A DNA stretch of 64,000 bases from NCBI GenBank assembly GCA_963797635.1, contig CAWCPZ010000010.1, positions 204,909 to 268,908 of the forward strand, in the 5' to 3' direction. A program made the translations under genes and the position numbers. This document shows positions 2,294-43,394 of this stretch, in pieces. Every line of letters begins with the position of its first letter. Positions within the stretch are counted from its first letter, which is position 1. Source of the DNA: an uncultured Actinomycetes bacterium. GTDB taxonomy: Bacteria > Actinomycetota > UBA4738 > HRBIN12. The notes under the pieces were generated by a model. The model saw nothing but the letters and a program-made list of their open reading frames with translations, searched no databases and was not told the DNA's origin.

Positions 2294-3292
2294 TCAGCAG
2301 GCCCCCGTCGCCGGCGCCGGCCCCGCGACGGGCCCGCTCAGCGGGAACGGCGTGCGCAACAGCCCGGGGATCGCGCCGATCGTGGCTCCCACGTCGGGAT
2401 CGCCCTTCACGTCGCCGTCCCACGTGTAGGCCCACGCGCCGCATGCCGGGTACTGCAACGTGCGCAACGACTTCAGGCCACCGGTCGGGATCGGCTCGCC
2501 GCCGGCGATGTAGGCCTGGAGCACCAGGCCGGTCGAGTTCGCGTCGGTGGCGATGAACGCGGTCGAGTAGGACCAGCCGTCGTGGCCCGGATCGCGCACC
2601 GTCTCGAAGAACGCGAAGGGGTCCGATCCCCACGATGTGCGGTCAGCGGCAGCCAGCGCCTGCACGACGTAGGAGGTGGAGTTCGAATCCGAGGTGAAGA
2701 AGTCGGTGCCCGAACCGTCGTCGCAGTGGTCGTCGTCCGTGCCGGGCGCGTAGGGGGCATCGTAGGACCACCCACCGTCGGGGCACTGTGCGTCCAGCAG
2801 CCAGCTGGTGACGGACGTGGCGGGCTTGACCCCGGCGGCCTCGATCGCGAGGACGCCGAGCGCCTGATCGAACACCGCCGCGTCATCGATGTGCCCGTCG
2901 TTGCCGATCTGCGAACGGATCGCCTGCAGCAGGTTCGTGCCGCCGAAGGTGCGGGGGTCACGGCCGACGGCCGACGCCGCCATGACCACCTTGGCCTGCA
3001 GGCCCACGCCGGTGACGTTGCCCGCCGCCACCTGGCGGCGGAGGTAGCCGAGCGCCTCGCGCATCGCAGGGCGGCCGGACCCGGTGGCCACGAAGGCCAG
3101 GACCGCGTCGGCGGTCGACCCGATCGGTGAGAACGCCGGGATCGAGCCGTTCGGTCGCTGCATGCCGGCGATGAACCCGGTGCCGCGTTCGGCTCGCTGT
3201 TGATCGGTGAGCGCTGCCGACGCCGATGCGGGAAGCATCACGACAGCCAAGGACAAGCAGGCGGCGACGATGCGCCGAGCGTTCGGGGCCAC
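2294..3292 (-). CDS. prenyltransferase/squalene-oxidase repeat-containing secreted protein (terpenoid-cyclase-like alpha/alpha toroid fold)
   Basis: Start is GTG at 3292, preceded by the RBS GGAAAGGAG. The signal peptide is ...RRIVAACLSLAVVMLPASASA, and the body carries repeated QxxDGGW/GWSY-type motifs typical of prenyltransferase alpha-alpha repeats. The track's 2294..3340 ORF has an N-terminal extension I rejected. Confidence 0.7.
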   Translation of the reverse strand: MAPNARRIVAACLSLAVVMLPASASAALTDQQRAERGTGFIAGMQRPNGSIPAFSPIGSTADAVLAFVATGSGRPAMREALGYLRRQVAAGNVTGVGLQAKVVMAASAVGRDPRTFGGTNLLQAIRSQIGNDGHIDDAAVFDQALGVLAIEAAGVKPATSVTSWLLDAQCPDGGWSYDAPYAPGTDDDHCDDGSGTDFFTSDSNSTSYVVQALAAADRTSWGSDPFAFFETVRDPGHDGWSYSTAFIATDANSTGLVLQAYIAGGEPIPTGGLKSLRTLQYPACGAWAYTWDGDVKGDPDVGATIGAIPGLLRTPFPLSGPVAGPAPATGAC

Positions 3293-3414
3293 GAGTGGCT
3301 CCTTTCCGGGCGTCCATCGCGCCCTCACGGAACGGACCACCCGATGAGGATCGACGTCGGCGCCCGGATCGGCGCCGGCGGCCCGTCCCCGTTCCTCGAG
3401 GGTCGTTCAGCCGA

Positions 3415-3545
3415 TGCGTCGCGCAGGGCGGCCTGGCTCGCACACGTGACGCTGGTGAGCGCCGGTGTGCCTACAGTTGCGGGACAGCGCCGGAATCTGA
3501 CCGGCTTCGCCTCCGCGACGCGGTGTGTTCCGCACGCTAGCAGAC
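3415..3545 (-). ncRNA. cobalamin (B12) riboswitch in the leader of the ECF operon
   Basis: The minus-strand sequence ...GCGGAGGCGAAGCCGGTCAGATTCCGGCGCTGTCCCGCAACTGTAGGCACACCGGCGC...GAGCCAGGCCGCC matches the B12-element core (GGGAA..GGTGnnAnTCC..CnGnCCCGCnACTGT) and the 3' B12 box (GAGCCAGGnnnCC). It sits about 125 nt upstream of the GTG start at 3292, with a GC-rich hairpin (GGCGCCGATCCGGGCGCC) in between. Confidence 0.65.
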
Positions 3546-11093: not shown

Positions 11094-12179
11094 ATGGTCT
11101 TGGGTGAGGGGGAGCCGGTCGTTGACGTCGTTCGCGGCGTCGTGTCGCTGCCCGACCTGCCCGCTCCCGCCCTCACCGATCATCTCCCCGAAGGCCCCTC
11201 ATGGCGCTATGAACCGGACTGGGACGGACTGCGCGTCGTGGTGCACCGGCGTGCGGGGCACACCGTGTTGGTGTCCGACCGGGGGAAGGCGATGGACCGC
11301 TACTTCCCCGAGGTGGTGCGGCACGCGTCACGCCTTCCCCTCGACTGCACGGTGCGCGGTTCGATCGTGGTGGTTCGGCGGTCCGGGTTCTCCTTCGATC
11401 GTCTGCGGTTGCGGATCCACCCCTCGGAGGCGCGGGTCGCCGAACTCACCGAGCGCTGGCCCGCCACGCTCGTGCTGACCGACCTGCTGTCGCGCGACAC
11501 CTGGGATCTGCGGCCGTGCGACCTCTCGGCGCGGCGCTTGCTGCTGGTCTCGATCGCGGAGGATTCGGACATCCCCGCGGCCTCGGCCGACCTCGGCCAG
11601 CTGGCAGCCGGCACGCCGGTCGTCGTGACGCCGCACACGCCGTTCGTCAGTTTCGCGATCCGGTGGCTCGAGGACCGGGACGAATCCGGGCGCGACGGCG
11701 TGATCGCGCGAGCGATGGACGGGGTCACGATGGTGCGGGTGCCCAGGCTCCGAACGGCGACCTGCGTGGTGACCGGGATCCGGCGCGAAGGCTCCGGCCC
11801 GCCGCACGCCTTGCGCCTGGGGCTCTACGACGGCGATGCCCTGGTCGACGTGGGGCGGACCACGTCGCTCCGTGGGTCGAGGGAGCGGCGCGGAGCGGCG
11901 CTCGCGCTCGCAGGTCTCGAGCGTGACACCCGGGCCGTGAACGGATGGATCGACGTCCGCCCCGAGATGGCCTGCGAGGTGACGTTCGCACGGCTGCGCG
12001 GGCGACGGTTCCGATCGGCGGCGCGGTTCATGCGGTGGCTGCCGGCGATGGATCCGCAACGATGCACGCTGCAGCAGTTCGACGCGATGGCACCGCCTCC
12101 GCCGGCAGCCCGCCGACGATCACGACGTGATCCGCCTCGACGTCTGAGGCTCGCCGTCAGCGCACCACCTTCGTGTTGA
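11094..12179 (+). CDS. ATP-dependent DNA ligase (LigC-like) homolog lacking the catalytic lysines (predicted inactive)
   Basis: Start at the ATG 11094 (MVLGEGEP...). It aligns along its full length to the LigC-type adenylation and OB domains. Motif I reads YEPDWDGLR (D where the adenylated K should be), motif III reads DCTVRGSIVVV (not DGExV), motif IV reads DGVIAR (K to R), and motif V reads MVRVPR (KxK to RxP). The C-terminal ...FRSAARFMRWLPAMDPQRCT is retained. Confidence 0.7.
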   Translation: MVLGEGEPVVDVVRGVVSLPDLPAPALTDHLPEGPSWRYEPDWDGLRVVVHRRAGHTVLVSDRGKAMDRYFPEVVRHASRLPLDCTVRGSIVVVRRSGFSFDRLRLRIHPSEARVAELTERWPATLVLTDLLSRDTWDLRPCDLSARRLLLVSIAEDSDIPAASADLGQLAAGTPVVVTPHTPFVSFAIRWLEDRDESGRDGVIARAMDGVTMVRVPRLRTATCVVTGIRREGSGPPHALRLGLYDGDALVDVGRTTSLRGSRERRGAALALAGLERDTRAVNGWIDVRPEMACEVTFARLRGRRFRSAARFMRWLPAMDPQRCTLQQFDAMAPPPPAARRRSRRDPPRRLRLAVSAPPSC

Positions 12180-12835
12180 ACATCGCGGTGTCCAACGCGC
12201 CCAACTCGCGGAGCCAGATCAGGAGATGAGCCTCCATGGCGCGAGCCGCGGTGATGTCGCCCAGATCGAGGATGTCCCGCCACCCGAAGGACTCCAGGAT
12301 CGCGGTGACCTCGGCCTTGGCGTCGGCGTCGTTGCCGCACAGCGGGATCGTGTGGTCGCCGCCGGCGAGGGCGCCCGGGTCGGTCATCAGCGCCGCCGTC
12401 ATCGTGTTCCACACCTTCACGAATCGAGCCTGCGGGAAGGGCGGCCTGCAACCGTTCGCCGAGCGAATCGGTGTTGGCGACGAACAAGCTGGGCGGCCAA
12501 CCCGACGCGTGGTCGATCGGGTTGGACGCGTCGAGCACGATCGTCCCGGTGAGGTGCTCGCCCCCGGCGCTCAGCGCGGCCTCGGAGCCTTCACCGTCGG
12601 TGGCGTTCACGACGATCTCGCCGTGGGCCATCGCGTCGGCCTGGGTCGTGAGCCCGATCTCCGGGTGCTCCGCCTTCCACTGCGCGAACGGTGGGTTCCC
12701 CATGGCGTCGCCCTCGGTGCGCGCCATCAACGCCTCGACGTCGCGCGTCCCGATCACGACGTCATGGCCTTTCTGGGTGAAGCCCTGCGCCAAGGTCCGT
12801 CCGACGGTTCCCGTGCCCACGATGCCGACCTGCAT
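12157..12835 (-). CDS. NADPH-dependent F420 reductase-like NAD(P)-binding oxidoreductase; frameshifted near 12425
   Basis: The N-terminal part (MQVGIVGTGTVGRTLAQGFTQKGHDVVIGTRD...) and the C-terminal part (MKVWNTMTAALMTDPGALAGGDHTIPLCGNDADAKAEV...) are in adjacent frames. Deleting one C in CTTCCCGCA restores ...QAALPQARFVKVWNTM. Confidence 0.65.
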
Positions 12836-12959
12836 CTGCCGCTCCCTTCGTCGTGGCACCATCTTGGGACATGCCCCACGTTCCGACTCCCGGGCCCGTC
12901 GCGCACCTGTCGTGGATCGAGGGGTGACCTTCCCGCCCGTCTCGCGCTACGGTTCACCC

Positions 12960-13818: not shown

Positions 13819-14295
13819 GTGATGCGGTGGTGGGTGGTGCTGCACGTGGTGATCGCGTTCGGGTTCGTCGCCGGCCTCATCGGCCGCGACATCACCCTCG
13901 CGAAGGCGCGTTCCACCGATGACCTGGGCCAGGTGGGGGCGCTCGTCGGCCTGGCGTCGCGGTTCGAGAAGCTGCTCGTGATCCCCGGGTCGTTCGCCGT
14001 GCTGGTAGCGGGCTTGATCGCGATGGTGGCGCAGGGCCGCTCGCTCACCGGCCCACGGAACGGCTGGCTCGTGGTGTCCCTGGTGCTGTTCGTGGCGCTG
14101 TTCGCTTTGGTGCCGACGGTGTTCCTGCCGCGAGGGAAGGTGTTCGATGCGGCGCTCGAGGATGCGACGGCGAAGGGCACGATGACGCCGGAGCTCCAGC
14201 GGGCGTTCGCCGATCCGGTGGTGGCGTTCGCTCGGAACGCCGAGCTGGTCGCGGTGGTCGTGATCATCGCGCTGATGGTGGCCAAGCCGTTCTGA
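13819..14295 (+). CDS. DUF2269 family membrane protein
   Basis: 158 aa with 4 TM helices, starting MMRWWVVLHVVIAFGFVAGLIGRD..., which matches the DUF2269 architecture. Confidence 0.65.
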   Translation: MMRWWVVLHVVIAFGFVAGLIGRDITLAKARSTDDLGQVGALVGLASRFEKLLVIPGSFAVLVAGLIAMVAQGRSLTGPRNGWLVVSLVLFVALFALVPTVFLPRGKVFDAALEDATAKGTMTPELQRAFADPVVAFARNAELVAVVVIIALMVAKPF

Positions 14296-14301
14296 CCTGC
14301 G

Positions 14302-14787
14302 TCACGCCCGGCGGCCGGCGTCGAGGAACCCGTCGTGGTCGTCGCCCAGCAGGAACCGTGGCCCGCTGCCGTTGACGCTCGCGGCGTCCTCGGGGTTGTA
14401 CAGGCGGCAGGTGGCGAGCGACAGGCAGCCGCAGCCGATGCAGCTGGTGAGGTCGTCGCGCAGCGCCTCGAGGTCGGCGATGCGTTCGTCAAGCCCGCGT
14501 CGCCAGGTGCGGGAGAGCTTGGCCCATTGCGCCTTCGTCGGGGCTCGGTCGGGCGGCAGCGTGGCGAGCGCCCCGGCGACATCGTCCAGGGAGAGCCCCA
14601 CACGTTGCGCCGCACGGATGAACGCGAGGCGCCGCAGCGTGTGTCGCGCGAACGCCCGCTGGTTGCCCGGCGTCCTCGTGGACGTGACCAATCCCTCGGC
14701 TTCGTAGAAGCGGATCGCCGAGGTGGCGAGGCCGCTCCGTTCCGCGACCTCACCGATCGCCAGCAGGTCGTCGCGGCCCTTCGTCAT
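14302..14787 (-). CDS. soxR: redox-sensitive transcriptional activator SoxR (MerR family, [2Fe-2S])
   Basis: Start at ATG 14787 (MTKGRDDLLAIGEVAERSGLATSAIRFYEAEGL...), with RBS GGAGGTG. Contains a MerR HTH and the SoxR-specific cluster motif CIGCGCLSLATC. Confidence 0.85.
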   Translation of the reverse strand: MTKGRDDLLAIGEVAERSGLATSAIRFYEAEGLVTSTRTPGNQRAFARHTLRRLAFIRAAQRVGLSLDDVAGALATLPPDRAPTKAQWAKLSRTWRRGLDERIADLEALRDDLTSCIGCGCLSLATCRLYNPEDAASVNGSGPRFLLGDDHDGFLDAGRRA

Positions 14788-14809
14788 CGCGGTCACCTCC
14801 GCGCGGGGC

Positions 14810-14840
14810 TTGACTTCAAGTGAACTTGAAGTTCTAGGGT
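14810..14840 (+). promoter_or_regulatory. SoxR-box promoter: TTGACT-(19 bp spacer containing the palindrome ACTTCAAGTGAACTTGAAGT)-TAGGGT
   Basis: The sequence is ttgacttcaagtgaacttgaagttctagggt. An 18/20 perfect inverted repeat sits between a -35 and a -10 hexamer with the 19-bp MerR-type spacer. It closely resembles the E. coli soxS operator CCTCAAGTTAACTTGAGG. It lies 9 nt upstream of the transketolase ATG and is divergent from soxR. Confidence 0.7.
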
Positions 14841-14848
14841 TCGTCGTC

Positions 14849-15538
14849 ATGGATACCACGACCGATCCCCTGACGCACGTGCGTGCGCTGATGGCGCGGG
14901 CCACCGGCGACGAGAAGCACGACGAGAGCACCACGTCGACCCTCGATGCCCTCTGGGTCCTCTACGACCGGGTCCTGCGCATCGATCCCGCGCATCCGGA
15001 CGCCGAGGATCGGGACCGGTTCATCCTGAGCAAGGGACATGGTCCCGCGTCGCTGTACGCGATCTTGGCGGCGAAGGGGTTCTTCCCGCCCGAGTGGCTC
15101 GACACGTTCCTCGATCACGACGGACGCCTCGGCTCGCACCCGGACCGCATGCAGGTGCCCGGCATCGAGGCTTCGACCGGCTCGCTCGGTCACGGGTTCC
15201 CGATGGCGGTGGGTGTGGCGCAGGCGTTGCGGGCGAAGGGCCGCCCGGACACCCGGGTGGTCGTCCTCACGGGTGATGCCGAGCTCAACGAGGGCTCCAA
15301 CTGGGAAGCCGTGATGCTGGCGCCCAACCTCCGCTTGGGCAACCTCACCTGGCTCATCGTCGACAACCACAGCTCCTCGTGGCCGATGGGACCGTGGGAC
15401 GCCTGGCTGCCCCCGTTCGGATGGGACGTGCGCGTCGTCGACGGTCACGATCACGACGCACTGGCGGCGGCGCTCGGGGTTCGTCACGCGGAACAGCCGG
15501 TGGCGGTCGTCGCGGACATCCCGGAGGGGGAGTGGTGA
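14849..15538 (+). CDS. transketolase, N-terminal (TPP-binding) subunit of a split transketolase
   Basis: Start at ATG 14849 (MDTTTDPLTHVRAL...). Contains ...RFILSKGHGPASLYA..., GSLGHGFPMAVG and GDAELNEGSNWEA. Its stop overlaps the next start (TGATG). Confidence 0.85.
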   Translation: MDTTTDPLTHVRALMARATGDEKHDESTTSTLDALWVLYDRVLRIDPAHPDAEDRDRFILSKGHGPASLYAILAAKGFFPPEWLDTFLDHDGRLGSHPDRMQVPGIEASTGSLGHGFPMAVGVAQALRAKGRPDTRVVVLTGDAELNEGSNWEAVMLAPNLRLGNLTWLIVDNHSSSWPMGPWDAWLPPFGWDVRVVDGHDHDALAAALGVRHAEQPVAVVADIPEGEW

Positions 15539-16415
15539 TGGCCGCCATGCGTGAGGCGTTCGCCGCCACGGCCACCGACCTGCTCGAAGCCGACGAGCGG
15601 GTGGCCATCGTGCTCGCCGACATCAGCGAGACCCTGCTGAGCGCGCGCGATCCGGCACGATCCCCTTCGCGCCGTCAACGTGGGGATCGCCGAGCAGACC
15701 ATGGTGGGCGTCGCGGCCGGGTTCGCCATGGAGGGGTTCCATCCGATCGCGCATTCGCTGTCGCCGTTCATGGCCGAGCGCCCCTACGAGCAATTGAAAC
15801 TCGACTTCGGCTATCAGGGCCTCGGCGGGACCTTCGTGGGCTCGGGCGGCTCCTACGACTACGCCGGAGAAGGCGCGACCCATCATTCGCCGGCGGACGC
15901 GTCGCTGATGCTCGCGATCCCGCGCATGCAGGTGCTGGTGCCGGGTCACGGACGTGAGGTGGACCAACTGCTTCGGGCGGTGGTGGCGAACGGCGAGCCC
16001 ACCTACGTGCGCACGAGCCTGGCGACGAACGACGAACCCCACGACGTGGCACCCGGCCGGCTCGAGGTGATCCGTCGCGGCGACGGACCCACGGTGGTGG
16101 CGTTCGGGCCCGATGCTCACGCGCGCGCTGGAGGCGACCGCCCACCTGGACGCCACGGTGGTGTACGCCACGAGCCTCGAGCCGTTCGACGGTGCGACGC
16201 TCCGCGAGCTCGCCGGAGACGCCCCCGACGTCGTGGTCGTCGAGCCCTGGTACGAGGGCACCGCGGCCGCCGTGATCACGGCCGTGTTCGCCGATGTGGC
16301 GGTTCGCCTGCGGTCCATCGGGGTTCCACGCCGGTTCATCCATCGCTACGGCACGTGGCAGGAGCTCGACGCCTCCTTGGGCATGGACGCCACGGGTATC
16401 CGAGCACGCCTGTGA
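15538..16415 (+). CDS. transketolase, C-terminal (pyrimidine-binding) subunit; two apparent +1 frameshifts (about 15665 and 16112)
   Basis: Three consecutive frames carry MAAMREAFAATATDLLEADERVAIVLADISETLL / VNVGIAEQTMVGVAAGFAMEGFHPIAHSL...PTVVAFGP / MLTRALEATAHLDATVVYATSLEPFDGATL...IGVPRRFIHRYGTWQEL. Deleting one C at each junction (tcccc, gggccc) restores a continuous transketolase C-terminal protein. Confidence 0.7.
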
Positions 16416-16472
16416 CGCAAGCGATCCGGTGACCCTCTCAGGTCGCCGGAGCGGGGCGTCGATGCTCCAAGC

Positions 16473-18515
16473 ATGCAGGAAGCGCAGCGTTCGACCGATG
16501 CCCTCGTGGACCCGGCCCAGCTGTTCGCGGCCGGTCCCGAGGCGCTGCTCGTCGTGCGCGAAGGCCGGATCGCCTGCGCGAACGAACGCGCACTCGATCT
16601 GGTCGGGCGCCCGATCGCCGGTCTCGACCTCCACGAGGTGATCCCCGATTGGCGCGCGGCACCCGACGATGCCGTGCCGTTCGAGGCGATGCTCCGCTGT
16701 GCGGACGGCGAACTCGCGATCGAGGTGCGCGTCCGCGAGCTCGAGGACGGGGTCACGGTGGCGTCGCTGCGAGACGCCCGCGCGCTGATCGCCGGTCGCG
16801 AGGCCGAAGCCGCGCTCGCCGATGCGGAGGAGCGCTATCGCGGCCTCGTGGAACAGATCCCCGCCGTGGTCTACGCCGACGACGGCAACGTCACCACCTA
16901 CGTCAATCCGCAGATCGAGCACATCCTGGGCGTCACGCCGCAGGCCTATCGGGACGATCCGAACATGTGGCTGCGCATGGTGCATCCGGACGACCGGGAG
17001 ACGGTCGAGTCGCAGAGCCAGGCGTTCATCGACGGCGTCGGGGGCGATCTCGCCGACTACCGGATGATCCGTCCCGACGGCGGGATCGTCTGGGTGCGCG
17101 ACCGCGCCTACGCCCACCGCGATGACGACGGCCGCGTGCTGTGGGAGCACGGCATCCTGTTCGACGTCACCGAGCTGAAGGAAGCCGAAGCGCGGATCGC
17201 GCACATGGCGTTCCACGACGGCCTCACCGGGCTCGCCAACCGGGAGCTCTTCGAAGAGACGCTGGCGCTCGCCGTGCAGCGCGCGAAGCGCGACGGGACG
17301 GTGGTCGCCGTCCTGTACCTGGACCTGGACAACTTCAAGCTGGTGAACGACTCGCTCGGCCACCATGCGGGCGACCGGCTGTTGATCCAGCTCGCCGACC
17401 GGCTCAGCGCCTGCACGCGCGACACCGACCTGGTGGCGCGGCAGGGCGGCGACGAGTTCCTCATGCTGCTCGCCGACCTCGGCCACGCCGACTACGTCGA
17501 GGCGATCCGGGCCGTCACCGACCGCGTGTACGAGGCGATGGCCGCGCCGTTCGACCTGGAGGGCACGGAGTTCTTCGCGCGGGGCTCCATCGGCATCAGC
17601 GTGCATCCCCACGACGCGCACGACGTCGAGACCCTGATGCGCAACGCCGACGTCGCGATGTACCGCGCGAAGCGGCTCGATCCCGGCGGCCACGCCTTCT
17701 TCGCCGCCGATGCCGACGACGCGCAGGACCGGTTGTCGTTCGCCACCCGCCTCCGGCAGGCGGTCGAGGACGAGAGCTGGTTGTTGCACTACCAACCGGT
17801 CATCGATCTCGCCGACCGGCGCATCGTGGGCGCCGAGGCGCTGATCCGCTGGGACGACGTCGCGGCCGGCATCGTCCCGCCCGGGGAGTTCATCCCCGTG
17901 GCGGAGGAACTCGGCCTGATCGAAGCGATCGGTGACTGGGTGGTGGACGAGGTCGCGCGGCAGCAACGTCGATGGATCGATGCCGGGCTCCACCTGGAGG
18001 TCTCGTTCAACCTGTCGCCGCGGCAGATGTGGACGCCTCGCCTCGGCGAACGGCTGATCGGCAAGCTCCACGACGCGGGGGTCGACCCTTCGTGCATGCA
18101 GGCCGAGATCACCGAGACCAGCGCGATGGCCGACCCCGAACGGACCCAGCGCATCCTGCGCGAGCTCCACGGGTGCGGTCTCCGGCTCGCGCTCGACGAC
18201 TTCGGCACCGGGTACTCCTCGCTCGCCCGTCTGAAGCACATGCCGGTCGACGTGTTGAAGATCGACCGCGAGTTCGTGCGGCACGTCGACAAGGACGTCC
18301 GATTGGCGGGGATGGTGCGAGCGATGATCCAGGTGGCCCAGAGCCTGGACATGGTGCCGCTCGCCGAAGGCGTCGAGACCGAAGGCGAGTACATCTTCCT
18401 GCGGTCGAACGGCTGTCGCCTGGCGCAGGGTTTCTGGTTCGCCCACCCGATGGCGGCCCGTGACTTCGAGCGGCTGGCCACCTCGGGCGAACCCCTCGGC
18501 CCGTCCACGATCTGA
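16473..18515 (+). CDS. PAS-PAS-GGDEF-EAL diguanylate cyclase/phosphodiesterase
   Basis: 680 aa. GGDEF motif: RQGGDEFLML. EAL motif: EALIRW..., DDFGTGYSSL. Two N-terminal PAS-like segments. Confidence 0.9.
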   Translation: MQEAQRSTDALVDPAQLFAAGPEALLVVREGRIACANERALDLVGRPIAGLDLHEVIPDWRAAPDDAVPFEAMLRCADGELAIEVRVRELEDGVTVASLRDARALIAGREAEAALADAEERYRGLVEQIPAVVYADDGNVTTYVNPQIEHILGVTPQAYRDDPNMWLRMVHPDDRETVESQSQAFIDGVGGDLADYRMIRPDGGIVWVRDRAYAHRDDDGRVLWEHGILFDVTELKEAEARIAHMAFHDGLTGLANRELFEETLALAVQRAKRDGTVVAVLYLDLDNFKLVNDSLGHHAGDRLLIQLADRLSACTRDTDLVARQGGDEFLMLLADLGHADYVEAIRAVTDRVYEAMAAPFDLEGTEFFARGSIGISVHPHDAHDVETLMRNADVAMYRAKRLDPGGHAFFAADADDAQDRLSFATRLRQAVEDESWLLHYQPVIDLADRRIVGAEALIRWDDVAAGIVPPGEFIPVAEELGLIEAIGDWVVDEVARQQRRWIDAGLHLEVSFNLSPRQMWTPRLGERLIGKLHDAGVDPSCMQAEITETSAMADPERTQRILRELHGCGLRLALDDFGTGYSSLARLKHMPVDVLKIDREFVRHVDKDVRLAGMVRAMIQVAQSLDMVPLAEGVETEGEYIFLRSNGCRLAQGFWFAHPMAARDFERLATSGEPLGPSTI

Positions 18516-23091: not shown

Positions 23092-23593
23092 CGATCTGGA
23101 GTGCGACCTCGCGGATGGAGCCGACGTTCTCGAAGGTGAGATCGCCGACGGTGTCGCCGCGGCCCTCGGCCACCTGTCGTTCGGCTTCGGCCAGGTCGTC
23201 CTGCCGTCCAGCCGTCACCGATACGGAGAGCCGGCGTTCGATCTCGTCGAAGGGGAGCGTGAGCCGGACCACCGTGAGCGGCATCGCGAGCGCGGCCCGC
23301 AGGTCGTCCACGTCGCGCTGGGTCTCCATCATGCGCGCCAGCGCGAACCGGCGGACGCCCGTGTCGTAGTAGTTGCCCACGACGGCGTCGACGTTCTTCA
23401 GCATCACGGGCATCCCCGCCCAATGGTCGCCGCCCGAACCAGGGTCGAACCAGCTCAGCCAGTCGAGGTCGATCGCGCCGTAGCGCACGCCGCGCGCTTC
23501 GAGGATGTCGGCGATCTCCTCGATCGCCGAGGTCTTGCCCGTGCCGAAGGCGCCGGTGACCAGCACGGCTTCGGCGTCGGGGCGATCGGCCAT
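23072..23593 (-). CDS. small P-loop NTPase (AAA/kinase-like ATP-binding protein)
   Basis: 173 aa with Walker A ([19 protein letters not shown]) and Walker B-like (IDLDWLSW) motifs. Confidence 0.6.
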
Positions 23594-23599
23594 CGGGGC

Positions 23600-24049
23600 C
23601 TAGCGAGCCTTGCCTTCGCGGAGCAGCGACATGGACTTGTCGATCCGGCGCTGCCGCGTCTCGGCGGCCTTCGCGCCTTCGATCGACTCCACGTGCCAGC
23701 GTTGCAGGCTGTAGCTCAGACCGCCGAAGAACGCCTCCGCCGAGGGTTCCGCGGCGAGCGCGGCGGCGAAGTCCTCCGGGACCTCCACCTCCCGCGGTGC
23801 GGTGTCGAGCGTGACCTCGACGTCGACCACGTCGCCGGCCGACACGCCCGCGGCCGTCCGGTGCTCGGCGCTCAACGGGAGCATGAACACGTCGCCGTAG
23901 GCTGCCACCGTGCTTCGGTAGGTGTGCGCACCGATCGTGACCTGCACGGGCGGTCGCTTGCCCTTGCCGAGTTCCTCGACGACCTTGGCGGGGACCGGGA
24001 TGCCCGTGGCGGTCTTGCCGTTCAGCTGGATCGTGGCGCGGAATCGCAT
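23600..24049 (-). CDS. YdeI/OmpD-associated family protein (DUF1905 + DUF1801)
   Basis: Start at ATG 24049 (MRFRATIQLNGKTATGIPVPAKVVEELGKGKRPPVQVTIGAHTYRS...). The C-terminal LSYSLQRWHVESIEGAKAAETRQRRIDKSMSLL is typical of this family. Confidence 0.65.
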   Translation of the reverse strand: MRFRATIQLNGKTATGIPVPAKVVEELGKGKRPPVQVTIGAHTYRSTVAAYGDVFMLPLSAEHRTAAGVSAGDVVDVEVTLDTAPREVEVPEDFAAALAAEPSAEAFFGGLSYSLQRWHVESIEGAKAAETRQRRIDKSMSLLREGKAR

Positions 24050-24063
24050 GGCGACATCTTCGC

Positions 24064-24853
24064 TCAGCCGAAGAACTCCTCCAACACGGGAGCCATGGCC
24101 TCGTCCGTGACGCCGTGCGTCTGGCCCTCGAGCGTTCGGTAGCGGGCGTTGGGCAGGACCGTCGCCAACGCACGTGCCGCGTTGCGCGCCCAATCGGGAC
24201 TCGCGCCGCCGTCCATCACCAGGGTCGGCATCGTCACGGTGGCCCACCGCTCACCCTGGAGCGGGCGGCCCGTCATCGTGTCGCCCATGACCCTGCCGTC
24301 GTAGACCAGGGTGTGCGCCATCGCTTCCATGGCCGGCCAGAACGGCGCGCTCCGCATCGACGCCACGGTGTCGGCCGGCGCCGCCGCCCCCGTGGTCATG
24401 AAGTACTCGACGGCATCGCCTCGCCGGTCCCCGGCCACGAGATCGGTGAGCTGTGCCACGTAGTCCGGCGGGAGCGGGGGGCGGCTGTCGTCCACGACGA
24501 ACGGCGGTTCGTAGAGCGCGAGCCGATCGATCGGGAGGCCCCGGGATGCGGCTTCGAGCGCGAGGACGGCGCCGGAGGAGTGCCCGTACACGCACGCCCG
24601 GCCGCCGGCGACCTCGAGCACGGCCGCGAGGTCCTCCACCTCACGCTCGACGGCGTACGGCGCGGTGTCGCCGCTCGATCCACGTCCCACGACGGTCGTA
24701 GACGAACACGTCGCACCGCGCGGACAGGAGGGTCGCGAGCGGTGACATCGCCGCGGCGGTCGTGAGCGCGCCACCCACGAACACGACCGCGGGACCGGCG
24801 CCCGATCGATCGAACGCGATCGTGGCGCCGTCCCGCGACCGGACGTCGTTCAC
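24064..24853 (-). CDS. alpha/beta hydrolase; frameshifted near 24690
   Basis: The N-terminal part (MNDVRSRDGATIAFDRSGAGPAVVFVGGA...CDVFVYDRRG) and the rest (RGSSGDTAPYAVEREVEDLAAV...VYGHSSGAVLALEAA...) are in adjacent frames. Deleting one G in cgtcgtggga restores the frame. It is a paralog of the gene at 32836..33612. Confidence 0.65.
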
Positions 24854-30821: not shown

Positions 30822-32070
30822 GTGAGCAACGTCCACCATCCACGTCTCCAGGCGGTGGCCGAGGAAGACCGGGTCACGCAGATCGAGCTGTTCTTCGATC
30901 TGGTGTTCGTGTTCGCGATCACCCAGGTGACGGCGTTGATGGCGGACGACCTGACAGCCCGCGGCGTGCTCCGCGGGCTGTTGGTGTTGTCGCTCCTGTG
31001 GTGGTGCTGGGTGGGCTACGCCTGGCTCGGCAACGTGGTGCGGGCCGACGAAGGGCTGGGCCGCGTCACGATGTTCGCGGGGATGGCCGCCATGTTCGTG
31101 ATGGCGCTCAGTCGTGCCGGAGGCCTTCGTCGACAACCCGGAGGGTGGCCTGAGCGGTCCGGTGGTGTTCGCGTTCGCGTACCTGGCCGTGCGGTTGCTG
31201 CATCTCACGATCTTCTGGCTCGCCGCCGGCTCGAACCTCGACTCCGGCCTGCAGGGACAGCTGATCCGGTTCGCGCCCTCGGTGCTCGGGAGCACGGCGC
31301 TGCTGCTGGTCGCGTCACAGCTCGAAGGCCGCGCGCAGACCCTCACGTGGGTGGCGGTCATCGTGGTGGATCTCGGCGGCACGCTGCTCGCGGGCGCCTC
31401 CGGCTGGCGGCTGAACTCCGCGGCGCATTTCGCCGAGCGACACGGCCTGATCATCATCATCGCGTTGGGGGAATCGATCGTGGCGATCGGCCAGGGCGTG
31501 GCCCGGGAACCGATCTCGTGGCCCGTGATCGCCGCGTCCGTCCTGGGGCTGACGGTGGCGGGCTGCCTGTGGTGGGCCTACTTCGACGTGATCTCGTTGA
31601 TCGCCGAGCGGGTGTTGCGTCGCGCACAGGGCGAGGCGCGCACGCGGCTCGCGCGCGACGCCTACAGCTACTGGCACCTGCCGATGATCGCCGGCATCGT
31701 CCTGCTCGCGCTCGGCCTGAAGAAGGTGCTGGAGTACGTCAGCGACACGAGCCACCACACGTTGTCCGAGGCGCTCGACCCGCTCCCGCTGGCGGCCTTG
31801 TACGGGGGGGTCGCGCTCTTCCTGCTGGGGCACGTGGCGTTCACCTACCGGGTGGAGCACCTCGTGAAGGTCCAGCGGGTGGTGACCGCGCTCGTGGTGC
31901 TCGCGCTGATCCCGCTCGCCGCGCAGATCCCGGCGCTGGCGGCGCTCACGCTGGTGGCGGTCATCCTGGTGGCGCTGATCGCGTTGGAATCGGTGTGGTT
32001 CCGCGACTCACGCGAGCGCATCCGCCACGAGGAGGACGACGCGATCTCGCACCTTCAGCACGGCGGCTAG
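30822..32070 (+). CDS. low temperature requirement protein LtrA-family membrane protein; frameshifted near 31110
   Basis: N-terminus MSNVHHPRLQAVAEEDRVTQIELFFDLVFVFAITQV... is typical of LtrA. The continuation (VPEAFVDNPEGG...LLHLTIFWLAAG...) is in the adjacent frame (track ORF 31114..32070). Confidence 0.65.
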
Positions 32071-42469: not shown

Positions 42470-42888
42470 TCGATCAGGTCGCGATCCGCGGCAGCGGGGC
42501 GTTCCTGCAGGACCCAGCCGTTGCCGTCGGGGTCGCTGAAGAACACCCATGAGTTCCACGGGCCACCCTTGCCGTCGGCGAGCCCGTCCTCCGTGAAGTG
42601 CTGGACCGGGCTGACGTCGACGCCGCGGCCGGCGAGTTCCTCGCGAGCGGCTTCGATGTCGTCCACGACCAGCTGCGGCCCCTGGAGCGAACCGGGTTCG
42701 GACCTGGTGATCCCCGTGCCCACCATGATCGAGCAGGCCGAACCCGGCGGCGTCAGCTGGACCACCCGGATGCTCTCCATCGGCGAGTCGTCGACATCGA
42801 CGACGAAGCCGAGCTGGTCGGCGTAGAACGCCTTGGCGCGGTCCACGTCGGTCACGGGCACGGGGAGCAACTCGAGCTTGTAGTCCAT
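42379..42888 (-). CDS. VOC family protein (paralog of 50603..51034); C-terminus possibly frameshifted
   Basis: Start at ATG 42888 (MDYKLELLPVPVTDVDRAKAFYADQLGF...). It is 27 aa longer than the paralog, with a non-conserved tail that overlaps the convergent peptidase gene. Confidence 0.65.
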   Translation of the reverse strand: MDYKLELLPVPVTDVDRAKAFYADQLGFVVDVDDSPMESIRVVQLTPPGSACSIMVGTGITRSEPGSLQGPQLVVDDIEAAREELAGRGVDVSPVQHFTEDGLADGKGGPWNSWVFFSDPDGNGWVLQERPAAADRDLIDYRWRSNHSCVRRIASRAWPRSSGTWPSRG

Positions 42889-42911
42889 GCGATGCGTCTC
42901 CTTCTCGTCGG

Positions 42912-43394
42912 TCAGGCTGCGGCGTCGGCCGCCTCCTCCAACACTTTGACCTCGATCTTCTGCATCTGCAGCATGGCCTGCATCGCCGCTTGCGAGCGAG
43001 CGGGGTTGGGGTCGCTCAGCAACTCGCCCATCCGCTCGGGGACGATCTGCCAGCTCAGACCGAACCGGTCCTTGAGCCATCCGCATTGACCCTCTTCGCC
43101 GCCGTCGGCGGTGAGCTGGGCCCAGAAGCGGTCGACCTCGTCCTGGTCCTTGCAGCTCACGTGGAACGACACCGCTTCGGTGAACGGGAACTGCGGCCCG
43201 CCGTTGATGGCCATGTACTCCTGACCGGCGAGCCGGAAGAACACCAGCGCCACGTTGTCGCCGCTGGGGGTGCCGTCGAGGCGCTCCACCCGCGTCACCT
43301 CGGCATCGTCGAAGAGCGACACGTAGAAGTTGGCGGCTTCCTCCGCCTGGGTGTCGAACCACAGGCATGGGGTGATCTTCTGCATCGGATCCAC
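42912..43394 (-). CDS. VOC family protein (PhnB-like / 3-demethylubiquinone-9 3-methyltransferase-domain type)
   Basis: Starts MDPMQKITPCLWFDTQAEEAANFYVSLF...; the ITPCLWF pattern is characteristic of PhnB-like proteins. Confidence 0.7.
   Translation of the reverse strand: MDPMQKITPCLWFDTQAEEAANFYVSLFDDAEVTRVERLDGTPSGDNVALVFFRLAGQEYMAINGGPQFPFTEAVSFHVSCKDQDEVDRFWAQLTADGGEEGQCGWLKDRFGLSWQIVPERMGELLSDPNPARSQAAMQAMLQMQKIEVKVLEEAADAAA

Follow-up and report, generated by a model that had tools for sequence, protein, structure and literature searches.

In promoters activated by SoxR, the operator typically sits between a -35 and a -10 hexamer that are 19 bp apart (PMC4411124). The operator of Escherichia coli, the SoxR box, has the consensus CCTCAAGTTAACTTGAGG (PMC4411124). 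Where the promoter of a divergent soxR gene overlaps this site, as in E. coli and in soxR-mfsA of Stenotrophomonas maltophilia, the geometry results in SoxR autorepression (PMC4411124). In Streptomyces the SoxR regulon is small (PMC4146615). In Streptomyces avermitilis, SAV_1623, annotated as a 'putative transketolase', was reported in 2014 to have a conserved SoxR site in front of it (PMC4146615), and in 2021 binding of His6-SoxR to the SAV_1623 promoter was described by electrophoretic mobility shift assay, together with soxR-dependent transcript levels (PMC8867992). Here we analyzed a stretch of 64,000 nucleotides from an uncultured Actinomycetes bacterium (GenBank assembly GCA_963797635.1, contig CAWCPZ010000010.1, positions 204,909 to 268,908), hereafter called the window, in which a soxR gene is divergent from tktN and tktC, a gene pair encoding a split transketolase-like enzyme. 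The G+C content of the window is 69.5%, and its closest relatives are metagenome-assembled Actinomycetota. We propose, with considerable confidence, that the region between soxR and tktN is a bidirectional MerR-type SoxR control region driving tktN-tktC. The enzyme step is the weakest part of this explanation.

The locus shares with E. coli soxR-soxS a divergent gene for a [2Fe-2S] SoxR, an inverted repeat of the CCTCAAGTTAACTTGAGG type, -35 and -10 hexamers spaced by 19 bp and a soxR promoter lying over the same site. It differs in that the target is an enzyme operon and not a second transcription factor, without a SoxS-type cascade, and in that a leaderless target mRNA is predicted. As in the six-gene regulon of Streptomyces coelicolor and in S. 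maltophilia soxR-mfsA, SoxR would act directly on few effectors from a box inside the spacer; soxR-mfsA also has the head-to-head arrangement and the autorepression (PMC4411124). The effectors of these two systems are oxidoreductases, monooxygenases and transporters, whereas here the candidate effector is a thiamine pyrophosphate (TPP)-dependent transketolase-like enzyme. With SAV_1623 the locus has in common, at the level of annotation, a SoxR site in the promoter of an actinobacterial gene labelled transketolase. A first-pass annotation of this DNA, made from the sequence alone, had presented transketolase as a novel SoxR target. In view of SAV_1623 this was overstated, since the link between SoxR and a transketolase is itself already known (PMC4146615, PMC8867992). 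The breadth of soxR-tktNC conservation, covering several Actinomycetota orders with an invariant leaderless promoter register, appears not to be described in the literature searched.

The locus comprises the following features, given in window coordinates.

14302-14787, minus strand: soxR, 161 amino acids (aa), stop codon at 14302-14304; MerR-type helix-turn-helix, then a C-terminal [2Fe-2S] motif
14787, minus strand: soxR start codon, left edge of the intergenic gap
14796-14800, minus strand: soxR Shine-Dalgarno sequence GGAGG, 8 nt upstream of the soxR ATG
14810-14815, plus strand: -35 hexamer TTGACT of the tktN promoter, read from the sequence
14813-14832, no strand assigned: predicted SoxR box ACTTCAAGT-GA-ACTTGAAGT, a 9+9 inverted repeat lying in the spacer and extending into the -35 hexamer
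14816-14834: spacer of 19 bp between the tktN -35 and -10 hexamers
14835-14840, plus strand: -10 hexamer TAGGGT (actinobacterial TANNNT type), read from the sequence
14849, plus strand: tktN ATG, right edge of the intergenic gap
14849-15538, plus strand: tktN, 229 aa, PP-domain (TPP-binding) chain of a split, shortened transketolase-like enzyme
15538-16415, plus strand: tktC, Pyr-domain plus C-terminal-domain subunit, spread over three frames; the frame is broken twice in the window

The gap between soxR and tktN measures 61 bp (14788-14848) and is bounded by the start codons of both genes, exactly as the first-pass annotation had placed it. A repeat search of the gap returned a single inverted repeat. 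Its arms (14813-14821, ACTTCAAGT; 14824-14832, ACTTGAAGT) are 9 nt long, 100% complementary and 2 nt apart, and the 18-nt box core CTTCAAGTGAACTTGAAG shares 15 of its 18 nucleotides with the E. coli box. The repeat is enclosed by TTGACT and TAGGGT with a spacer of 19 bp, which falls in the over-long range (19-20 bp) of SoxR-activated promoters. Both the hexamers with their spacing and the E. coli-like palindrome had been pointed out before, and both were read directly from the sequence here. The -10 hexamer ends 8 nt before the tktN ATG (the earlier estimate was about 9), and this stretch contains no Shine-Dalgarno sequence, which suggests that the tktN mRNA is probably leaderless or near-leaderless, in keeping with the earlier description. 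The tktN start at 14849 is supported because many homologues are 229 aa long and aligned over the whole query. Rfam and tRNA scans of the window returned nothing close to the gap.

Judged by its sequence, the regulator is a bona fide SoxR. It scored 199.7 bits with the NCBIfam equivalog model TIGR01950 (cut-off 116.9), and the models for CueR, ZntR and MerR gave scores far under their own cut-offs. Pfam matches comprised MerR, MerR_1 and MerR-DNA-bind, corresponding to the helix-turn-helix and the dimerisation helix. Residues 8-147 aligned gap-free with E. coli SoxR (PDB 2ZHG, E = 1.3e-39), and all four cysteines align. The cluster motif named in the first-pass annotation, CIGCGCLSLATC (CX2CXCX5C), is present and stands opposite CIGCGCLSRSDC of E. 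coli. Between the third and the fourth cluster cysteine the residues are LAT here versus RSD in E. coli SoxR. In view of the species-specific residues known in SoxR proteins, this exchange may point to a narrower inducer range, like that in Streptomyces or Pseudomonas.

Related loci were collected by a scan of one genome per species with an alignment of TktN homologues, which yielded 80 loci. Of the 19 loci whose TktN is 64-75% identical, eight carry a divergent soxR, four a divergent ArsR-family gene and four a small upstream open reading frame (ORF); the remaining three are arranged in other ways. Two metagenomic loci with 84-85% TktN identity (L081 and L082) show the order soxR-tktN-tktC with an intact tktC. 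In Isoptericola jiangsuensis DSM 21863 (57% TktN identity) soxR is also divergent from tktN. For a phylogenetic footprint the window and 11 loci (TktN 57-85% identical) were anchored on the -35 hexamer. A block of 31 nt (TTGACn / TCAAGTGcACTTgAA.. / TAnnnT) aligned gap-free in the window and all 11 loci, with unconserved intergenic flanks. In these twelve closest loci TTGAC is invariant, and the distance from the end of the -10 hexamer to the tktN ATG is 6-9 nt throughout. The -10 hexamer reads TAnnnT in 11 of the 12, the exception being CAGGCT in I. jiangsuensis. More distant loci have TTGACC or TTGAGT at -35 and CAnnnT or GAnnnT at -10, the latter 6-7 nt from the ATG.

Cultured genera with the same short TktN family were also sampled for the box and for soxR. 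Three of them, Mumia flava, Micromonospora sp. and Planosporangium thailandense, carry the box in the same register next to a divergent soxR whose product contains the cysteine motif. In Promicromonospora sp., Phytoactinopolyspora halotolerans and Krasilnikoviella flava the box and promoter precede tktN, and no soxR was found within 1.5-2.5 kb upstream of tktN. The promoters of these three loci consist of TTGACC, a 19-bp spacer with a SoxR-type palindrome (e.g. ACCTCAAGTTTGGTTGAGGT) and a -10 hexamer, followed after 6-7 nt by the ATG. Overall, the same gap-free register of -35, box and -10 stands before tktN in 17 related loci, which belong to uncultured Actinomycetota and to seven cultured genera. 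In an 18th, from Pseudonocardia sp. HH130630-07, it is present in degenerate form only. The 19-bp spacing is constant in all 18 box-bearing related loci. Synteny across the loci is limited to soxR, tktN and tktC; the flanking genes vary. The 120 best homologues of Isoptericola TktN included no Streptomyces protein, and the single Streptomycetaceae locus examined (45% identity) had no box.

The first question raised by this geometry is whether the palindrome serves soxR autoregulation only, with tktNC as chance neighbors outside SoxR control. Since the soxR Shine-Dalgarno sequence lies at 14796-14800, soxR transcription should start at or beyond ~14803, which places the soxR promoter over the SoxR box or over the beginning of tktN. 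E. coli and S. maltophilia have such a shared divergent site, and SoxR autorepression is documented in both. The hexamers around the box, however, face tktN, and the 19-bp spacer and the 6-9 nt to the ATG are conserved. Moreover, in the Promicromonospora, Krasilnikoviella and Phytoactinopolyspora loci the box is kept before tktN with no soxR found within 1.5-2.5 kb upstream. The site is thus part of the tktN promoter and does not serve soxR autoregulation alone, which agrees with the first-pass annotation. Autoregulation of soxR and control of tktNC are also compatible with each other. We thus regard autoregulation as the sole function of the site as very improbable.

A chance palindrome, or an operator of another MerR-family metal sensor, has in its favor only the general likeness of MerR-type operators. 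In 100 dinucleotide-preserving shuffles of the window there were 0.00 matches to the box, and no second copy of the 20-mer with at most three mismatches exists in the 64 kb. A position-weight matrix built from ten of the aligned -35-anchored sites found no second SoxR box in the window, and the scan with this matrix of relatives without soxR gave no such site. The match of 15 of 18 positions to the SoxR box, its conservation across Actinomycetota orders and a regulator that exceeds the SoxR cut-off while staying far below those of the metal sensors also speak against both possibilities. On the basis of the shuffles and the profile scores we rejected them as practically negligible. A predicted SoxR operator embedded in a MerR-type tktN promoter is strongly supported by the family assignment of the regulator and by the footprint in 17 related loci, with the 18th being weak. 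The anatomy of the site, the identity of the regulator and the conservation of the module are direct observations.

In the mechanism that we propose, a SoxR dimer would bind the 9+9 inverted repeat within the over-long 19-bp tktN spacer. With reduced [2Fe-2S] clusters, SoxR would keep the tktN promoter poor or repressed. Redox-cycling compounds such as phenazines, quinones and viologens would oxidise the clusters, and oxidised SoxR would untwist the spacer and bring the two hexamers into a position that RNA polymerase can use. Transcription is expected to start at the tktN ATG or within 1-3 nt of it and to give a leaderless tktN-tktC mRNA, on which translation of the two genes may be coupled through the overlapping TGATG. 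Since the SoxR site overlaps the divergent soxR promoter, SoxR probably represses its own gene as well. The product would be an alpha2-beta2 split transketolase-like TPP enzyme, most likely transferring two-carbon ketol units and aiding pentose-phosphate recycling and NADPH supply in redox stress.

Several findings weigh against this proposal; they concern the promoter, the direction of regulation, the enzyme and the reading frame of tktC. A generic sigma-70 promoter scan of 14200-16700 called no promoter; it admits spacers of 16-18 nt only, and its silence is expected and uninformative because the 19-bp MerR-type spacer exceeds this range. Deletion of soxR in S. avermitilis raised the level of the sav_1623 transcript, SoxR being a repressor under the conditions used there (PMC8867992). 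By analogy, such repression fits a reduced MerR-type regulator, and activation is not demonstrated by it. For the organism studied here we infer redox-dependent activation, the inducers, the transcription start, the direction of regulation and the substrate of the enzyme.

With respect to the enzyme, the first-pass annotation had spoken of a pentose-phosphate transketolase. The split transketolase-like pair was recovered; the pentose-phosphate identity was not established. Among solved structures, TktN is matched best by the N-terminal chain of the Carboxydothermus hydrogenoformans split transketolase (6YAK, E = 2e-44), and TktN matches positions 24-230 of the 334 of the Pfam profile Transketolase_N. 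The alignment to 6YAK stops at residue 270 of 309, where TktN itself ends, and ~40 C-terminal residues are absent. We take this absent segment to hold the second catalytic His, the equivalent of E. coli His261. The tktC ATG overlaps the tktN stop codon (TGATG). Reconstructed TktC contains Transket_pyr and Transketolase_C and matches 6YAJ, also from the C. hydrogenoformans split transketolase, with E = 6e-25. The match of TktC to DXS has E ~1e-21, nearly as good. The layout corresponds to the two-chain type of C. hydrogenoformans, with adjoining genes for a PP-domain and a Pyr-plus-C-domain subunit, which there form an active alpha2-beta2 enzyme. The differences are the missing C-terminal segment of the 229-aa TktN and a TPP motif with GDA versus GDG. 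The TPP-binding motif (GDAELNEG...DNH) and GIAEQ with the cofactor-activating Glu are both present, and Arg and His residues of TktC align with phosphate-binding positions of the C. hydrogenoformans C chain. The roles given to these residues are those of transketolases in general. No second transketolase gene was found in the window.

Against the full-length transketolase models NF004559 and TIGR00232 (cut-off 488), TktN reached 145.5 bits and reconstructed TktC 105.9 bits. TktN stays far under every NCBIfam transketolase cut-off, and NCBI/PGAP labels many TktN orthologues only as 'thiamine pyrophosphate-dependent enzyme'. Sub-cut-off scores are to be expected in part for a split enzyme. Nevertheless, with the sub-cut-off and ~40 residues shorter TktN, the PGAP label, the DXS-like TktC, split relatives with other substrates and the ArsR-linked sister lineages, the pentose-phosphate assignment is weak. 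The product is best described as a shortened split transketolase-like TPP protein, for which a pentose-phosphate role is the most economical guess and is unsupported.

The same evidence bears on the possibility that SoxR control is real and the enzyme is a specialised TPP-dependent ketol-cleaving or ketol-forming enzyme with another substrate, for instance a reactive short-chain ketol or aldehyde or a redox-active metabolite. The shortened TktN (229 aa versus 309 aa in the 6YAK chain), its scores and label and the DXS-like TktC are in line with it, and split relatives with other roles exist in the steroid side-chain cleavage genes of Clostridium scindens (PMC3735941) and in sulfofructose transketolase. 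The vicinity of the pair to an ArsR-family regulator in sister lineages suggests a stress effector and not a housekeeping enzyme. On the other hand, the nearest characterised relative is a genuine transketolase, and the TPP motif, the GIAEQ Glu and the phosphate-site Arg and His positions are all retained. We consider such a specialised enzyme possible, if rather doubtful. An extension of this idea is held more tentatively still: the TPP enzyme may be a dedicated, widely conserved actinobacterial SoxR effector with a stress role outside the pentose-phosphate pathway, such as disposal of reactive ketols or aldehydes or a reaction on redox-active metabolites. In several orders it would then be SoxR's main local target, and the pair would have been rewired to an ArsR-family sensor in sister lineages.

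The last point against the proposed SoxR control of a working operon is the state of tktC. The first-pass annotation had described a tktN/tktC pair; the breaks in tktC had been missed. tktC is read in three frames due to two single-base (+1) insertions, one at ~15636-15648 and one at g16112. Compared at the nucleotide level with the intact tktC of L081 and L082 (291 aa), the window has exactly two extra bases, and tblastn with an intact orthologue placed the pieces of tktC in frames +1, +2 and +3. The intact frame of a split transketolase is found in L081, L082 and other relatives and is lacking in the window. Lone subunits of a split transketolase are inactive (PMC7661550), so that real insertions would leave this genome without a working target operon.

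The module could accordingly be a decaying relic in this genome, with box and soxR intact, tktC a pseudogene and no working enzyme. Consistent with this, neither insertion lies within a long homopolymer run. However, unrelated genes of the window are frameshifted as well. The LtrA-family gene (30846-32070, plus strand) has a frameshift at ~31110 that splits the PF06772 match, positions 1-80 lying in one frame and 82-356 in another. An F420-dependent NADP oxidoreductase-like gene (12157-12847, minus strand) is probably broken near 12423-12470: its N-terminal piece matches PF03807 in full, and the C-terminal piece (12157-12423) resembles the remainder of such a protein without a Pfam match. With these, at least 3-4 frame breaks occur in the 64 kb window. 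Two related assemblies (L007 and L017) show comparable breaks in soxR, tktN and tktC. Otherwise the tktC frames are clean and conserved, with 76% amino-acid identity over a central block of 156 aa. Because of the LtrA and F420-oxidoreductase-like splits and the breaks in L007 and L017, the tktC insertions are probably assembly errors, and only possibly mark a true pseudogene; the pattern looks like the indel errors of long-read assembly. We therefore regard a relic as unlikely. Assembly indels of this kind would leave tktC and at least one other gene mis-annotated. A map of third-position G+C (GC3) and open frames was too noisy at the G+C content of the window, and selected frameshift candidates were checked with Pfam, which confirmed the break in LtrA. 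Two of the candidates, 23240-24678 and 42505-43388, were rejected because the check revealed separate genes.

If the proposed SoxR control of tktN-tktC is correct, a TPP-dependent transketolase-like enzyme is a conserved and physically linked SoxR target in many Actinomycetota, including abundant uncultured soil lineages. SoxR regulons outside enterobacteria are small, with oxidoreductases, monooxygenases and transporters as the effectors described so far, and the module would add an arm of central carbon or TPP chemistry to the response to redox-active compounds. It would also generalise the isolated observation in S. avermitilis. For experiments, Isoptericola, Mumia, Micromonospora and Planosporangium are at hand as carriers in culture.

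Some arrangements in the related loci were observed in addition. In five loci a short tktN-tktC pair is divergent from a regulator of the ArsR/SmtB family (PF01022) with a TCACDF cysteine motif. The intergenic region of the ArsR-linked loci contains a different conserved, AT-rich block with CTATATAG. It looks as if the regulator had been swapped on a conserved effector operon in these relatives. In four other loci a small conserved ORF (~64-70 aa, ending ...VAAIYTY) lies directly upstream of tktN on the same strand; it gave no Pfam match. One of these four (L014) has TTGACG, 19 bp and TACGGT around a degenerate palindrome, perhaps the remnant of a SoxR box. In the I. jiangsuensis locus an NAD(P)H-binding gene (NAD_binding_10 / NmrA-like; 2572-3357, minus strand) lies downstream of soxR on the same strand. 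NAD(P)H-binding NmrA-like proteins are typical members of the SoxR regulon in Streptomyces.

Downstream of tktC, no terminator-like site separates it from a gene for a PAS-GGDEF-EAL protein of 680 aa (16473-18515, plus strand), which begins 57 nt past tktC. This gene is syntenic in L082 and L017 and not in the other soxR-tktNC loci. Elsewhere in the window, at 3432-3505 on the minus strand, Rfam matched a cobalamin riboswitch with 31.5 bits, exactly the gathering score, over model positions 51-163 of 189 only.

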